NCBI RefSeq assembly: GCF_003018255.1
Contig: NZ_CP027440.1
From: Escherichia coli
GTDB taxonomy: Bacteria > Pseudomonadota > Gammaproteobacteria > Enterobacterales > Enterobacteriaceae
Length of the DNA: 64,000 nt
Direction: 5' to 3' (one strand)
Shown in pieces: positions 3,934 to 57,972 of this stretch. The position numbers and the translations under genes were made by a program. A model generated the notes under the pieces. That model made no database searches, had not been told where the DNA came from, and was given only the letters and a program-made list of their open reading frames with translations. Position 1 is the stretch's first letter. Each line of letters begins with the position of its first letter.

Positions 3934-3947
3934 TTTGTGGTTTTTAC

Positions 3948-3969
3948 GTCGCATCTGGTCAGATGCGAC
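3948..3969. repeat. REP-like palindrome (GTCGCATC-N6-GATGCGAC) between convergent thiI and yajL; possible bidirectional terminator
   Basis: Inverted repeat read directly from sequence immediately 3' of thiI stop. Confidence 0.5.
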
Positions 3970-3986
3970 GCTTACCGCATCCGACA

Positions 3987-5451
<1,465 letters not shown>

Positions 5452-5618
5452 TGTTCCTCCTCACCCGCAACCACTCCGGGTGTTCAATAAGGCTATCCCT
5501 TAATTGTGCATGCTGTTGCGACTATGCACAATTAAGGGATACGTCCTGGTGCGGGACTGTCGGTTATTTAACTTTGCGGGTATTATGCTTCGCATCAAAA
5601 ATGAAGGGAGAGGAAAAG

Positions 5619-6110
5619 ATGCCATCTTTCGATATTGTCTCTGAAGTTGATCTTCAGGAAGCACGTAACGCGGTCGATAACGCGAGCCGCGAAGTGGAGT
5701 CCCGTTTTGACTTCCGTAATGTTGAAGCCTCATTTGAGCTGAATGACGCCAGCAAAACCATCAAAGTGTTGAGCGAGTCCGACTTCCAGGTCAATCAGTT
5801 GCTGGATATTCTGCGTGCCAAGCTGCTGAAGCGCGGCATTGAAGGCAGTTCACTGGATGTACCGGAAAATATCGTTCATAGCGGTAAAACCTGGTTTGTG
5901 GAAGCGAAACTGAAACAGGGCATTGAGAGCGCGACTCAGAAGAAAATCGTCAAAATGATCAAAGACAGCAAACTGAAAGTGCAGGCGCAAATTCAGGGCG
6001 ATGAGATCCGCGTAACGGGTAAATCTCGTGATGATTTGCAGGCTGTCATGGCGATGGTACGTGGTGGCGATCTCGGTCAGCCGTTCCAGTTCAAAAACTT
6101 CCGCGATTAA
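5619..6110 (+). CDS. yajQ: nucleotide-binding protein YajQ (UPF0234)
   Basis: Track ORF 5451..6110 trimmed to ATG 5619 ([10 protein letters not shown]...), 163 aa, preceded by GGGAGAGG Shine-Dalgarno. Confidence 0.9.
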
Positions 6111-6136
6111 TCGCGACAACCTGCGCTTTGTTCATG

Positions 6137-6223
6137 TCAGATGCGGCATGAACGCCTGATTTGGCTTACAAAGGTTTGTAACTCAGGAACTTAGTAGGCC
6201 TGATAAGCGTAGCGCAGCAGGCA
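6137..6223. repeat. REP-type palindromic units (includes GTAGGCCTGATAAGCGTAGCGCAGCAGGC)
   Basis: Sequence matches the REP family seen again at 50963-50992; between convergent yajQ and yajR. Confidence 0.6.
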
Positions 6224-6237
6224 ATTTCGCCTCGCTT

Positions 6238-7602
6238 TTATGCCTGGCGAATTGCCTGTTCAACCTCAAAGCGATTCGTCACTTTGCTGTCGATTTTCAC
6301 ATACACTGAATGTTCTTCTTCTGCAATCAACACTTCTTTGACGCCTTCAGTTTCCAGCAAACGTACTTCTAACGCTTCGTTTGCGGCAGTGTCCGCCGGG
6401 ATTTCAATGCGCAAGCTGCTGACATACGGCGGTTCTTTCATGGTACTGGCGACTGCCAGCCACACTGCGGCCAGCATTGCGCCAGCGAGAAATACTCCCT
6501 GACCGTCAAACATGCCGTCAATCCAGCCGCCCAGCGAACCGCCAATCGCCACGCCAAGAAACTGGCTGGTGGAGTAAACACCCATCGCCGTACCTTTGTA
6601 ACCTGCTGGCGATTCTTTACTGATAAGTGAAGGCAGAAGGGCTTCCATCAAATTAAACGCCACAAAGAAAAGCTGCACGCCGACCACCAGTTGCCAGAAC
6701 TGCGTTTGTGCGTTCCACAACACAATTTCCGCAACCACGATCAGCCCGACGCAAAAGACAAAGACTTGCTTCATTTTGCGCTTAACTTCAGCGTAGATAA
6801 TGAAAGGCACGACCGAGCCAAAGGCGATTAACATCGTTGCCAGGTAGACCTTCCAGTGTTCAGCCGCCGGGAACCCCGCATCAGCCATCTGTCCGGGCAG
6901 GGCAACAAAGGTCGACATCAGCAAAATATGCAGACACATAATGCCAAAGTTGAGTTTCAGCAGCCGCGGTTCCGCCAGCACTTTACTGAAACTTCCTTTC
7001 ACCATTCCGGACTCACGATTAAGTACGTGAGTGCTACTGTTGGGCACAACCCAAATGGTCAACGCAATGCCGGTTGCTGCCAGAATAGCGATCATCCAGA
7101 ACAGCGCGTGCAGCCCAAGTTTGTGAGTGATGATCGGGCCAAGCACCATCGCAATGGCAAAGGTAATGCCAAAGCTCACGCCGATAAACGCCATCGCTTT
7201 GGTGCGGTTTTGTTCGCGCGTGAGATCGGAAAGCAGCGCCATAACGGCAGCGGCAATCGCACCGGAGCCTTGTAGCGCCCGGCCCAGAATAATTCCCCAG
7301 ATGGAGTCAGAGAGCGCAGCGATAACGCTACCGGCGGCAAACACTGCCAGCCCACCGACAATTAATGGTTTGCGACCAATGCGGTCGGAAAGCAGGCCAA
7401 ACGGAATCTGAAAAACGGCCTGAGTCAGACCATAAATACCAATGGCAATACCGATTAATGCTTCGCTGGCACCTTGCAGAGCCATGCCGTACGTGGTCAG
7501 AACCGGCAGAACCATGAACATGCCCAGCATGCGCAACGAGAATACGGTCCCTAAACCCCAGGTCGCGCGTCGCTCACCTGGCGTCATTTTATAATCGTTC
7601 AT
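6238..7602 (-). CDS. yajR: major facilitator superfamily transporter YajR
   Basis: Track ORF 6238..7800 trimmed to ATG 7600-7602 (MNDYKMTPGE...), 454 aa, polytopic membrane protein. Confidence 0.9.
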   Translation of the reverse strand: MNDYKMTPGERRATWGLGTVFSLRMLGMFMVLPVLTTYGMALQGASEALIGIAIGIYGLTQAVFQIPFGLLSDRIGRKPLIVGGLAVFAAGSVIAALSDSIWGIILGRALQGSGAIAAAVMALLSDLTREQNRTKAMAFIGVSFGITFAIAMVLGPIITHKLGLHALFWMIAILAATGIALTIWVVPNSSTHVLNRESGMVKGSFSKVLAEPRLLKLNFGIMCLHILLMSTFVALPGQMADAGFPAAEHWKVYLATMLIAFGSVVPFIIYAEVKRKMKQVFVFCVGLIVVAEIVLWNAQTQFWQLVVGVQLFFVAFNLMEALLPSLISKESPAGYKGTAMGVYSTSQFLGVAIGGSLGGWIDGMFDGQGVFLAGAMLAAVWLAVASTMKEPPYVSSLRIEIPADTAANEALEVRLLETEGVKEVLIAEEEHSVYVKIDSKVTNRFEVEQAIRQA

Positions 7603-7710: not shown

Positions 7711-7735
7711 AAAAAAGGTGCCGTAGCACCTTTTT
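7711..7735. terminator. Rho-independent terminator at end of cyoABCDE (bidirectional hairpin AGGTGC-cgta-GCACCT flanked by A6 and T5)
   Basis: Stem-loop and flanking runs read from sequence 16-40 nt downstream of cyoE stop. Confidence 0.8.
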
Positions 7736-22850: not shown

Positions 22851-25296
<2,446 letters not shown>

Positions 25297-25337
25297 TGAC
25301 CTCTGTACTTATAACAACAACGTAAGGTTCTCGCGCT

Positions 25338-36885: not shown

Positions 36886-36915
36886 GCGCAGTTAACCCTC
36901 TCCGCCCGGAGAGGG

Positions 36916-37305
36916 TTAGTAGTTCCAGCGATAACGCTGCAAGTCGATTTGCCCGCTTCCCGATACCATCACACCTTCTGCCAGTAATGCCTGTCGTTGA
37001 CGCTGTAAATCCGGTCCGGTTAGCGAAATTGTGCCGTGGCGATTAACCACCCGGTGCCAGGGCAAGGTGCTGCCTTCGGGGAGACGCTTTAACACACCGC
37101 CTACCTGGCGCGCGGCGCGCGGCGATCCCGCCAGTTTCGCCACATCACCGTAAGTGGTGACATAGCCTTCGGGAATAGCGGCGACGATTTGCCAGACGCG
37201 TTGGGGAAATGAATCTTCTTTTTCCATCTTTTCTTCCTGAGGTAATTTTTCAGCATAATCTGGAAAAACGCCCGAGTGAAGCCGCATTGCGCAAGAAACC
37301 AGCAT
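36916..37305 (-). CDS. atl: alkyltransferase-like DNA-damage-binding protein (MGMT fold, PWHRV in place of catalytic PCHRV)
   Basis: Track ORF 36916..37326; start at 37305 (129 aa) from recalled protein length, 37326 also possible. Confidence 0.85.
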   Translation of the reverse strand: MLVSCAMRLHSGVFPDYAEKLPQEEKMEKEDSFPQRVWQIVAAIPEGYVTTYGDVAKLAGSPRAARQVGGVLKRLPEGSTLPWHRVVNRHGTISLTGPDLQRQRQALLAEGVMVSGSGQIDLQRYRWNY

Positions 37306-42188: not shown

Positions 42189-45341
<3,153 letters not shown>

Positions 45342-45360: not shown

Positions 45361-46554
45361 TTAAGACTTGGACTGTTCAGGCTGAGCACCGCTTGCGGCT
45401 TGCTGGTTATTATCAGCGGTAACTTCTTGTGCTTTTACCTGGACACCAGGACGCACTTTCTGCAGCCCACTTATTACTACGCGATCGCCTGCTTTCAGAC
45501 CTTCTGTCACCAGCCACTTATCGCCGATAGCCTGGCTTGCAACGATCGGACGGGTTTCCACTTTGTCATCCGCGCCAACCACCAGTACGGTGGCATCGCC
45601 ACGCGGCGTACGGGTTACGCCCTGTTGCGGGACTAAAATAGCGTTTGGATTAAGCCCTTCTTCCAGACGTGCACGTACGAACATACCCGGCAGCAGAGTG
45701 TGATCCGGGTTCGGGAAGATAGCGCGTAGGGTGATAGACCCGGTGGTCTGATCAACGGTAACGTCAGAGAATTCCAGCGTACCGTCCTGCGGGAACTTAA
45801 TGCCGTCACTGGTGATCAGCGACACTTTGGCTTTGCCGTTCTCTTGTTTCAGCGTGCCATTTGCCAGTTCCTGTTTCAGGCGCAGGAAGTCGTTGCTGGA
45901 CTGGGTCACATCAACGTAGATCGGATCAAGTTGCTGCACGGTTGCCAGCGCAGTCGCCTGACCGTTCTGTACCAATGCGCCTTCTGTCACGTTCGACTTA
46001 CCAATGCGACCGCTAATCGGAGAGGTAACTTTGGTGTAAGCCAGATTGATTCGCGCAGTTTCAACGGCAGCTTTCGCCGCAGTTACCGCAGCATTCGCCT
46101 GTTGCGCATCAGCCAGAGCCTGATCGTACTCTTGTTTACTGATGTACTGAGTACCGAGCAGTTTCTGATAACGATTCACCGTCAATTGCGCGATATTTGC
46201 TGCAGCCTGGGCTTTCGCCAGATCACCTTTCGCACTGTCGTATGCCGCCTGATAGGTCGCAGGATCAATCTGATAGAGAGAGACACCTGCTTCGATGTCG
46301 CTACCTTCTTTGAAATTACGCTTCAGGATAATCCCGCTAACTTGAGGACGAACTTCTGCGATCCGGTAGGCACTGGTGCGACCCGGAAGCTCGGTTGTGA
46401 TCTGCAGAGGTTCAGTTTTGACTGTTACTACGCCAACGGCGGGCATCTGCTGGCCACCTTGTTGGGCCTGTTTGTCGTCACATCCTGTTAGGGCTAAGCT
46501 GCCTGAGAGCATCAGAACGACCGCCAGAGGCGTAAACCCTCTGTTTTTGTTCAT
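45361..46554 (-). CDS. acrA: periplasmic adaptor (membrane fusion) protein
   Basis: Track ORF 45361..46590 trimmed to MNKNRGFTPLAVVLMLSGSLALTGC (397 aa, lipobox). Confidence 0.96.
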   Translation of the reverse strand: MNKNRGFTPLAVVLMLSGSLALTGCDDKQAQQGGQQMPAVGVVTVKTEPLQITTELPGRTSAYRIAEVRPQVSGIILKRNFKEGSDIEAGVSLYQIDPATYQAAYDSAKGDLAKAQAAANIAQLTVNRYQKLLGTQYISKQEYDQALADAQQANAAVTAAKAAVETARINLAYTKVTSPISGRIGKSNVTEGALVQNGQATALATVQQLDPIYVDVTQSSNDFLRLKQELANGTLKQENGKAKVSLITSDGIKFPQDGTLEFSDVTVDQTTGSITLRAIFPNPDHTLLPGMFVRARLEEGLNPNAILVPQQGVTRTPRGDATVLVVGADDKVETRPIVASQAIGDKWLVTEGLKAGDRVVISGLQKVRPGVQVKAQEVTADNNQQAASGAQPEQSKS

Positions 46555-46643
46555 ATGTAAACCTCGAGTGTCCGATTTCAAATTGGTCAATGGTCAAAAG
46601 TTAATAAACCCATTGCTGCGTTTATATTATCGTCGTGCTATGG

Positions 46644-46667
46644 TACATACATTCACAAATGTATGTA
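46644..46667. promoter_or_regulatory. AcrR operator, 24-bp palindrome TACATACATTCACAAATGTATGTA
   Basis: Inverted repeat (10-bp arms) read in the divergent acrA/acrR spacer, 28 nt upstream of acrR ATG. Confidence 0.8.
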
Positions 46668-46695
46668 AATCTAACGCCTGTAAATTCACGAACAT

Positions 46696-47343
46696 ATGGC
46701 ACGAAAAACCAAACAAGAAGCGCAAGAAACGCGCCAACACATCCTCGATGTGGCTCTACGTCTTTTCTCACAGCAGGGGGTATCATCCACCTCGCTGGGC
46801 GAGATTGCAAAAGCAGCTGGCGTTACGCGCGGTGCAATCTACTGGCATTTTAAAGACAAGTCGGATTTGTTCAGTGAGATCTGGGAACTGTCAGAATCCA
46901 ATATTGGTGAACTCGAGCTTGAGTATCAGGCAAAATTCCCTGGCGATCCACTCTCAGTATTAAGAGAGATATTAATTCATGTTCTTGAATCCACGGTGAC
47001 AGAAGAACGGCGTCGATTATTGATGGAGATTATATTCCACAAATGCGAATTTGTCGGAGAAATGGCTGTTGTGCAACAGGCACAACGTAATCTCTGTCTG
47101 GAAAGTTATGACCGTATAGAACAAACGTTAAAACATTGTATTGAAGCGAAAATGTTGCCTGCGGATTTAATGACGCGTCGGGCAGCAATTATTATGCGCG
47201 GCTATATTTCCGGCCTGATGGAAAACTGGCTCTTTGCCCCGCAATCTTTTGATCTTAAAAAAGAAGCCCGCGATTACGTCGCCATCTTACTGGAGATGTA
47301 TCTCCTGTGTCCCACGCTTCGTAACCCTTCCATTACCGAATAA
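46696..47343 (+). CDS. acrR: TetR-family repressor of acrAB
   Basis: Track ORF 215 aa; N-terminal HTH. Confidence 0.96.
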
Positions 47344-47470: not shown

Positions 47471-50400
47471 ATGACTATGTTCCAGTATTACAAACGATCA
47501 CGGCATTTTGTTTTTTCAGCATTTATTGCTTTTGTTTTTGTCTTGTTATGCCAGAACACGGCGTTTGCGCGGGCGTCATCGAATGGTGATCTGCCGACAA
47601 AAGCGGACCTGCAGGCACAACTTGACTCACTGAATAAACAAAAAGATCTTTCTGCTCAGGACAAACTGGTGCAGCAGGATCTGACAGATACATTAGCTAC
47701 CCTCGATAAAATCGATCGCGTAAAAGAAGAGACAGTTCAGCTACGGCAAAAGGTTGCTGAAGCGCCGGAAAAAATGCGCCAGGCGACCGCGGCGTTAACT
47801 GCACTTAGCGATGTCGATAATGACGAAGAAACGCGCAAAATTCTGAGTACGCTTTCGTTGCGCCAGCTGGAAACTCGCGTTGCCCAGGCGCTGGACGATT
47901 TGCAAAACGCACAAAACGATCTGGCGTCTTATAACAGCCAGCTGGTTTCGTTACAGACGCAGCCCGAACGCGTGCAAAATGCGATGTATAACGCTTCGCA
48001 GCAGCTGCAACAAATTCGCAGTCGTCTGGATGGGACTGATGTCGGCGAGACTGCCTTACGTCCCAGCCAGAAAGTGTTAATGCAGGCTCAGCAGGCGTTG
48101 CTGAATGCCGAGATTGACCAGCAGCGTAAAAGCCTGGAAGGGAACACAGTCTTACAGGATACCTTGCAAAAGCAACGGGATTACGTGACGGCGAACAGCG
48201 CCCGTCTGGAGCACCAGTTGCAGCTGTTGCAAGAAGCAGTAAACAGCAAGCGTCTGACTTTAACCGAAAAAACGGCGCAGGAAGCCGTCTCCCCGGATGA
48301 AGCCGCGCGTATTCAGGCTAATCCGCTGGTGAAGCAGGAACTGGAAATTAACCAGCAGTTAAGTCAGCGTCTGATTACCGCGACTGAAAACGGTAATCAG
48401 TTGATGCAGCAAAACATTAAAGTCAAAAACTGGCTGGAGCGGGCGCTGCAATCGGAACGCAATATTAAAGAGCAGATTGCCGTCCTGAAGGGCAGCTTGC
48501 TGTTGTCTCGTATCCTTTACCAGCAACAACAAACGCTGCCCTCGGCGGATGAACTGGAAAACATGACCAACCGCATCGCGGATTTGCGTCTCGAACAGTT
48601 TGAAGTTAACCAGCAGCGTGATGCACTCTTCCAGAGCGATGCGTTCGTCAACAAACTGGAAGAAGGTCACACCAACGAAGTCAACAGCGAAGTTCACGAT
48701 GCATTATTGCAAGTGGTTGATATGCGTCGCGAATTGCTGGATCAGCTTAACAAACAGTTGGGTAACCAATTGATGATGGCCATTAACCTGCAAATCAACC
48801 AGCAGCAGTTAATGAGTGTGTCGAAAAACCTGAAATCCATCCTGACTCAGCAAATCTTTTGGGTGAACAGTAACCGTCCAATGGACTGGGACTGGATCAA
48901 AGCGTTCCCGCAAAGCCTGAAAGATGAATTTAAGTCGATGAAAATCACGGTGAACTGGGAAAAAGCCTGGCCTGCCGTTTTTATCGCTTTCCTCGCCGGT
49001 TTGCCGCTGCTGTTGATTGCCGGGCTGATCCACTGGCGTCTGGGCTGGCTGAAAGCGTATCAACAAAAACTGGCTTCCGCTGTGGGTTCCCTGCGTAACG
49101 ACAGCCAGCTCAACACACCAAAAGCGATCCTTATCGACCTGATCCGTGCGCTGCCGGTGTGCCTGATTATTCTCGCGGTTGGCCTGATTCTGTTGACCAT
49201 GCAGCTCAACATCAGCGAACTGCTATGGTCGTTCAGTAAAAAACTGGCGATTTTCTGGCTGGTGTTTGGCCTGTGCTGGAAGGTACTGGAGAAAAACGGC
49301 GTTGCCGTGCGTCACTTTGGTATGCCGGAACAGCAGACCAGCCACTGGCGTCGGCAAATTGTCCGCATCAGTCTCGCGTTGCTGCCTATCCATTTCTGGT
49401 CTGTGGTGGCAGAACTTTCCCCGCTGCATCTGATGGATGATGTGCTGGGGCAGGCGATGATTTTCTTCAACTTGCTGCTGATTGCCTTCCTGGTGTGGCC
49501 GATGTGCCGCGAAAGCTGGCGTGATAAAGAGTCGCACACCATGCGACTGGTCACCATTACCGTACTGTCGATTATCCCGATTGCGTTGATGGTGCTGACT
49601 GCCACGGGTTATTTCTACACCACGCTGCGCCTCTCCGGGCGTTGGATTGAAACCGTTTATTTGGTGATCATCTGGAACCTGCTGTACCAGACGGTATTGC
49701 GCGGCTTAAGCGTAGCGGCGCGGCGTATCGCCTGGCGTCGTGCGCTGGCGCGTCGGCAGAATCTGGTGAAAGAGGGCGCAGAAGGTGCTGAACCGCCGGA
49801 AGAACCCACCATTGCACTGGAGCAGGTTAACCAGCAGACGCTGCGTATTACCATGTTGCTGATGTTTGCGCTGTTCGGTGTCATGTTCTGGGCAATTTGG
49901 TCCGATTTGATCACCGTGTTCAGCTATCTGGACAGCATCACGCTCTGGCATTACAACGGCACTGAAGCTGGCGCTGCGGTGGTGAAAAACGTCACCATGG
50001 GCAGTCTGTTGTTTGCGATTATCGCCTCAATGGTGGCCTGGGCGTTGATTCGCAACCTGCCTGGTTTACTGGAAGTGCTGGTGCTCTCGCGACTGAATAT
50101 GCGCCAGGGCGCGTCGTATGCCATTACTACCATCCTTAACTACATCATTATTGCCGTTGGTGCGATGACGGTGTTCGGATCGCTGGGCGTCTCGTGGGAT
50201 AAACTCCAGTGGCTGGCGGCAGCATTATCCGTAGGTCTTGGTTTTGGTTTACAAGAGATCTTCGGTAACTTCGTTTCCGGTTTGATCATTCTGTTCGAAC
50301 GTCCGGTGCGCATAGGCGACACGGTAACCATTGGTAGCTTCTCGGGTACGGTCAGCAAGATCCGTATTCGTGCGACAACGATTACCGATTTCGATCGCAA

Positions 50401-55950: not shown

Positions 55951-55974
55951 CGAGAGCAGGATCACCTGCTCTCG
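55951..55974 (+). terminator. hairpin after recR (CGAGAGCAGG-atca-CCTGCTCTCG), probable weak terminator
   Basis: Perfect 10-bp stem read from sequence; tail only moderately U-rich. Confidence 0.5.
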
Positions 55975-57933: not shown

Positions 57934-57972
57934 ATGCCGGATGACCTTCGTGTCATCCGGCATTTTTCTTTT
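57934..57972 (+). terminator. Rho-independent terminator after htpG
   Basis: TGCCGGATGA...TCATCCGGCA 10-bp stem followed by T-rich tail. Confidence 0.85.

Follow-up and report, generated by a model that had tools for sequence, protein, structure and literature searches.

A 24-bp palindrome between the divergent acrA and acrR genes of Escherichia coli is the published operator of the repressor AcrR

TetR binds a 15-bp site as one dimer, and QacR binds a 28-bp site as two dimers. At tetO and at QacR IR1, as at the AcrR site, a dyad-symmetric promoter site is bound by helix-turn-helix dimers that are released by ligand. The sequences of QacR IR1 and tetO are unrelated to that of the AcrR operator, whereas its length of 24 bp, its 10-bp arms and the dimer-of-dimers mode of binding that has been suggested for AcrR (PMC10597343) resemble the QacR arrangement, the stoichiometry of AcrR on its site being so far a suggestion. 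Closer to AcrR are TtgR (Pseudomonas putida ttgABC) and MtrR (Neisseria gonorrhoeae mtrCDE), its nearest relatives in the PDB (E = 2e-44 and 2e-32, respectively), both of them local repressors of RND pumps acting on pseudo-palindromic sites that overlap the pump promoter. A 2025 study treated TtgR, AcrR and MtrR as one TtgR/AcrR family with exchangeable DNA-binding modules and paired each with its own operator, as PLttgO, PLacrO and PLmtrO (PMC12693512). The paralogous envR-acrEF locus of E. coli has the same layout as acrR/acrAB, with a TetR-family repressor gene divergent from an RND pump operon; the 398-bp envR-acrE spacer of MG1655 contained neither a site with at most 3 arm mismatches to the AcrR operator nor a comparable perfect inverted repeat.

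For AcrR itself, the site TACATACATTTGTGAATGTATGTA is described as two 10-bp inverted repeats with a 4-bp spacer in the passages of PMC10597343 and PMC9769551 that cite Su, Rutherford & Yu 2007 for it, and the same sequence is quoted in a review (PMC10482752). In EMSA experiments, purified AcrR shifted an acrAB promoter fragment and not gapA (whole promoter fragments were used rather than the 24-mer alone), and binding to the acrAB promoter was prevented by ethidium, putrescine, cadaverine and spermidine (PMC9769551, PMC10597343). An acrABp-lacZ fusion was strongly derepressed in a Δ-acrR strain, and its induction by ethidium needed acrR (PMC9769551). When the AcrR operator was placed downstream of phage lambda PL (PLacrO) in the 2025 study, expression became AcrR-dependent and rhodamine-6G-inducible (PMC12693512), indicating that the operator functions outside its native context. 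The AcrR structures found in a PDB search (2qop, 3bcg, 3lhq) were all DNA-free, with none of an AcrR-DNA complex.

We analyzed a 64,000-nucleotide stretch of E. coli DNA (the window) that includes the acrR/acrA region. Its relevant features, in window coordinates, are as follows.

42189..45338, minus strand: acrB, encoding the RND permease and lying second in the operon under repression (ORF list and annotation)
45361..46554, minus strand: acrA, periplasmic adaptor of the pump, 397 aa (RefSeq and NCBIfam)
46601..46630, plus strand: candidate acrR promoter, -35 TTAATA at 46601-46606 and -10 either TATATT (last base 46628) or TATTAT (last base 46630) (consensus scan only)
46645..46640, minus strand: candidate acrAB -10 TACCAT, overlapping the first two left-arm bases (consensus scan only)
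46644..46667: AcrR operator, 24-bp palindrome; its reverse complement is the published acrAB-promoter site
46644..46653: left arm TACATACATT (repeat finder)
46654..46657: central 4 bp CACA, varying between species
46658..46667: right arm AATGTATGTA (repeat finder)
46669..46664, minus strand: candidate acrAB -35 TTTACA, overlapping the right arm (consensus scan only)
46696..47343, plus strand: acrR, TetR-family repressor gene, 215 aa (RefSeq and NCBIfam)

The preliminary description of this DNA had reported a 24-bp palindrome with perfect 10-bp arms between the divergent acrA and acrR starts, and both the structure and the position were borne out. Positions 46644-46667 read TACATACATTCACAAATGTATGTA, with the structure TACATACATT-CACA-AATGTATGTA, and the repeat finder returned arms (46644-46653 and 46658-46667) of 10 nt each that are 100% complementary around a 4-nt centre. 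The pattern TACATACATTNNNNAATGTATGTA, allowing up to 3 mismatches, matched once in the 64 kb and never in 100 dinucleotide-preserving shuffles, and the runner-up 24-mer in the window differs from the operator at 8 positions. The annotated ATGs lie at 46554 (minus strand, acrA) and 46696 (plus strand, acrR); for acrA, the mechanical ORF list gives a TTG further upstream, which is not the annotated start. The spacer between the two ATGs is 46555-46695 (141 bp, 34% G+C), with 28 bp separating the palindrome from the ATG of acrR and 89 bp separating it from that of acrA. The identity of both genes was confirmed by their products, which scored 417.7 bits against NCBIfam equivalog NF007949 (cut-off 271) for acrR and 884.6 bits against NF011604 (cut-off 765) for acrA, and PDB entry 2qop aligned with AcrR residues 1-214 (E = 1.2e-139).

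The reverse complement of 46644-46667 is TACATACATTTGTGAATGTATGTA, identical at 24 of 24 positions to the published AcrR site. We take TTTACATACATTTGTGAATGTATGTACC to be the 28-mer of Su, Rutherford & Yu 2007 (BBRC 361:85), and it equals the reverse complement of 46642-46669. The earlier expectation that AcrR binds this palindrome is thus supported by the alignment that had been proposed as its check, run here with a 24/24 match, and by flanking genes that are indeed acrR and acrA. The EMSA named beside that alignment as a check already exists in the literature for fragments of the acrAB promoter. Because sequence, position and neighbour genes all agree, we conclude that the palindrome is the published AcrR operator itself and not a mere relative of it. 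The finding is already known, the operator having been defined in 2007.

The surrounding DNA, 46300-47000, was matched at ≥95% identity in 5,423 of 5,426 complete E. coli genomes, with RefSeq acrA and acrR beneath. In MG1655 the genes occupy 484426-485619 (acrA, minus strand) and 485761-486408 (acrR, plus strand), a window coordinate being the MG1655 coordinate minus 439,065. With 34 differences from MG1655 over 3,001 bp at the locus, the strain is a different one. A 71-bp stretch around the operator was identical in 5,274 of the 5,423 E. coli genomes, BW25113 included, and was found in one place per genome. Variation within the species is uninformative, as E. coli is too uniform around the operator. 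Some complete genomes carry insertions here: an IS1B element splits acrR in one (H1), and in two others (H10 and H22) an IS481-family element cuts the match off 7 bp past the right edge of the operator (~46674). Insertions of this kind would inactivate acrR or separate it from its promoter.

The spacing between the candidate acrAB -35 and -10 hexamers found by the consensus scan is 18 bp, and the palindrome fills this interval and lends bases to both hexamers. A database transcription start for acrAB, which we take to be at MG1655 485,698, corresponds to window position 46633, 7 nt downstream of the candidate -10. With the candidate acrR promoter, the palindrome would correspond to roughly nucleotides +7 to +30 of the acrR transcript. 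The genome-wide table of transcription starts of Kim et al. 2012 (PMC3415461 supplement) lists no start at either the predicted acrAB or the predicted acrR promoter; the two acrA starts that it gives, at 221 and 359 nt upstream of the ATG, are weak and fall within acrR, and its acrR start, 492 nt upstream of that gene, is weak as well (PMC3415461). The two acrA starts map to window positions ~46775 and ~46913 on the minus strand, antisense in acrR, and transcripts from them would read through the operator. Because the hexamers come from consensus matching and the predicted starts are absent from the PMC3415461 table, we infer the promoter overlap rather than observe it. An overlap of the palindrome with the acrAB core promoter is nonetheless plausible from the sequence.

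Taken together, these data point to the palindrome as the operator of the TetR-family regulator AcrR in the shared acrAB/acrR control region (probability about 0.96), probably acting by occlusion and autorepression with ligand release. As expected of a TetR-family operator, the locus combines dyad symmetry with an adjacent gene for a helix-turn-helix regulator. In this mechanism, AcrR dimers would read both 10-bp arms through their N-terminal helix-turn-helix. Since the palindrome occupies the interval from the candidate -35 to the candidate -10, bound AcrR would sterically exclude RNA polymerase from the candidate acrAB promoter, and since it lies just downstream of the candidate acrR promoter, AcrR would block that promoter or the early acrR transcript and limit its own synthesis. 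Pump substrates or polyamines would bind the C-terminal domain of AcrR, which would then leave the DNA and allow acrAB to be expressed. Activators of the MarA/SoxS/Rob type may act from a marbox 26 bp further upstream. We take the marbox consensus (MarA/SoxS/Rob site) to be AYNGCACNNWNNRYYAAAY, and its only exact match in the window, with 0.03 expected, is ATGGCACGAAAAACCAAAC at 46696-46714 (plus strand), the first 19 nt of acrR including the ATG; this match sits 26 bp upstream of the candidate acrAB -35, as expected for activation by MarA/SoxS/Rob. AcrR binding at the promoter of acrAB, release by ligand, derepression in Δ-acrR and function of the transplanted operator are published steps (PMC9769551, PMC10597343, PMC12693512), and to them we infer here the exact promoter overlap, the autorepression through the palindrome and the stoichiometry.

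We scanned one genome per species (~100,000 species, 298 Gb) for the operator core ACATACATTNNNNAATGTATGT, which has 18 fixed bases, and obtained at least 120 exact matches; the genes at each locus were found by tblastn with the AcrR, AcrA and AcrB of the window. Because this set was selected by the palindrome, it shows the company that the palindrome keeps and not how often AcrR-like loci carry it, and conservation of the 18 fixed bases within it is not independent evidence. Among the matches listed (at least 120), 111 adjoin AcrA/AcrB-like pump genes and 110 have a divergent AcrR-like gene starting within 500 bp. The distance from palindrome centre to AcrR-like gene start has a median of 40 bp among these 110 listed loci, as in the window, and an AcrA-like gene is also present in 107 of them. 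One listed locus (L084) has AcrA- and AcrB-like genes, and its sequence ends before the regulator would begin. The nine listed matches, among at least 120, that lack a pump or regulator context come mostly from low-G+C genomes and are close to the number expected by chance, which for 18 bases in 298 Gb is about 4 at uniform composition and more in A+T-rich DNA.

One of these nine out-of-context matches, from a Desulfovibrio sp. (L056), is yet beside a TetR-like gene. There, the core is inside a 42-bp perfect palindrome, TTCACCTTAAACATACATTCACGAATGTATGTTTAAGGTGAA, at ~5998-6039, flanked by a TetR-like ORF (5121-5720) and a 414-aa ORF (6055-7299) in a layout unlike that of acrR/acrA; the inner 26 bases of this palindrome also occur in L028.

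The listed loci with an AcrR-like gene form a close set and a distant set. In 85 of them the regulator is at least 55% identical to AcrR, and these are Enterobacterales. In the other 25 listed loci, identity is 33-45%, and the hosts are Aeromonas, Burkholderiales, Silvimonas, the alphaproteobacterium Inquilinus and a few MAGs. The distant loci and their Burkholderiales hosts include the following.

Burkholderiales with the operator core among the listed matches: Acidovorax, Ottowia, Polaromonas, Comamonas, Rivibacter, Aquabacterium, Ramlibacter, Herminiimonas
Distant loci, including: L007, L011, L012, L014, L022, L025, L035, L037, L040, L048, L065, L071, L075, L078, L085, L088, L094, L098, L102, L109, L117, L119

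In regulators of the distant set, identity is 63% across residues 1-65 and reaches 78% in the helix-turn-helix (33-53), compared with only 26.5% in the ligand-binding domain. The flanks are scrambled in the 25 distant loci and the palindrome persists. The two outermost positions, which were free in the scan pattern, are also kept among the unique loci listed: position 1 is T in 75 of 75 close and 24 of 25 distant loci, and position 24 is A in 75 of 75 and 21 of 25, respectively. The central 4 bp take 12 different tetranucleotides in the close set and 12 in the distant set (unique loci listed). At the -35 position, all 75 unique Enterobacterales loci listed have TTTACA or CTTACA, and all 24 distant loci listed end in ACA, with a promoter-like xxTACA. 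At the -10 position, the close loci listed always have TACCAT, TAACAT or TAATAT, and the distant loci listed mostly have TAnnnT (TATATT, TATAAT, TAAACT and similar). From this pattern, we tentatively suggest, at somewhat less than even odds, that the core of the AcrR operator may be a near-invariant and very old operator common to local RND-pump repressors of Gamma-, Beta- and Alphaproteobacteria.

Across 79 unique Enterobacterales spacers, identity to the window is ~81% in the leader on the acrA side (46555-46643), where many columns reach ≥90%, and 63% on the acrR side (46668-46695); identity to the central CACA is 75%. The acrA leader being about as conserved as the operator, the operator is not the sole constrained element of the spacer. 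The leader contains an imperfect inverted repeat (46604-46612 / 46617-46625), and its minus strand holds TCGGAC, the reverse complement of 46569-46574. Two CsrA sites are described for the acrAB leader of Salmonella, and TCGGAC is one of them (PMC5727465).

We considered whether the palindrome might serve chiefly as a hairpin in the RNA, at the 5′ end of the acrR transcript, acting on its stability or translation, and not as a site for a DNA-bound protein. Folded as RNA, the 24-mer does give a perfect stem of 10 bp (-8.4 kcal/mol; z = -4.3 relative to shuffles), which would occupy positions of about +7 to +30 in the acrR mRNA if the candidate acrR promoter is real. However, the fold is unremarkable in a 60-nt context (z = -1.6), the stem is A+U-rich with no U tract after it, the free outer positions retain T and A themselves instead of covarying as pairs, and across species the site travels with a conserved helix-turn-helix and not with a conserved transcript. 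With direct binding of AcrR and a working transplanted operator also published (PMC10597343, PMC9769551, PMC12693512), we judge this reading very unlikely; although the hairpin does fold, its presence is better accounted for as a consequence of the dyad, and an effect on acrR mRNA is not needed. An intrinsic terminator was likewise rejected, as only 2 of the 10 pairs in the stem are G-C, neither strand has a T run after it and the terminator scan made no call. Alternatively, another regulator could be the chief user of the site and AcrR a secondary one, the paralogous TetR-family protein EnvR/AcrS being an example. EnvR has been reported to repress acrAB, and the window AcrR reaches 178.7 bits with the family model of EnvR, which indicates that AcrR and EnvR are related. 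Against a primary role for EnvR/AcrS, the site adjoins an AcrR-like gene across species (listed matches), the envR-acrE spacer of MG1655 has no related palindrome at up to 3 arm mismatches, and deletion of acrR alone is enough for strong derepression of acrABp-lacZ, with ethidium induction also needing acrR (PMC9769551). It is therefore highly improbable that AcrR is secondary at this site.

The A+T-rich spacer (34% G+C) and the presence of seven other perfect inverted repeats in the window raise the question of whether the palindrome could have arisen by chance or be one copy of a dispersed repeat, such as a REP-like element or a terminator. This reading is excluded: 0 of 100 shuffles gave a match, no terminator was called, and about 110 unrelated genomes (listed matches) carry the palindrome in the same gene context. 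A REP-like dispersed repeat was rejected in particular, the operator having 1 match in the window and the 71-bp stretch around it one place per E. coli genome.

Perfect inverted repeats (arms ≥10 nt, loop ≤10 nt) are enriched in the window as a class, with 8 distinct repeats compared with 0.68 ± 0.88 in 40 shuffles. The seven others, with arms of 10-12 nt (3947-3970, 7712-7735, 25280-25304, 36893-36918, 48371-48400, 55951-55974 and 57934-57963), are mostly G+C-rich and resemble terminator or REP-type hairpins. With regard to weaker AcrR-like sites, AcrR sites with 9-11 mismatches have been predicted in the literature at flhDC, puuA, mdtUJI, soxRS and marRAB (PMC10597343, PMC9769551). In the 64-kb window, we found 6, 38 and 156 24-mers with at most 9, 10 and 11 mismatches to the operator, respectively. 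Because 24-mers with 9-11 mismatches occur at chance density, such predicted sites are indistinguishable from chance by sequence alone. The repeat finder also returned a direct repeat (46648-46665 / 46681-46698) that suggested a second AcrR site at 46677-46700; with 10 mismatches, of which there are 38 such 24-mers in the window, this site is unsupported.

The operator is medically relevant, since AcrAB-TolC is the chief multidrug efflux pump in E. coli and one contributor to clinical resistance is the loss of repression by AcrR. Since the operator was defined in 2007 and is already a synthetic-biology part, its rediscovery adds nothing new on E. coli. Two points may be useful, namely the chance density of sites with 9-11 mismatches and the occurrence of the core palindrome beside very divergent regulators in other proteobacterial classes; only the latter, the breadth of the core beside highly diverged AcrR-like regulators, may be new, and then mildly so. 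If the core is indeed an old operator shared by these repressors, it would amount to sensor modules having been exchanged in nature on an unchanging operator, with the DNA-binding module held while the ligand domain diverged, and cross-repression would be possible between resident and horizontally acquired pump regulators.
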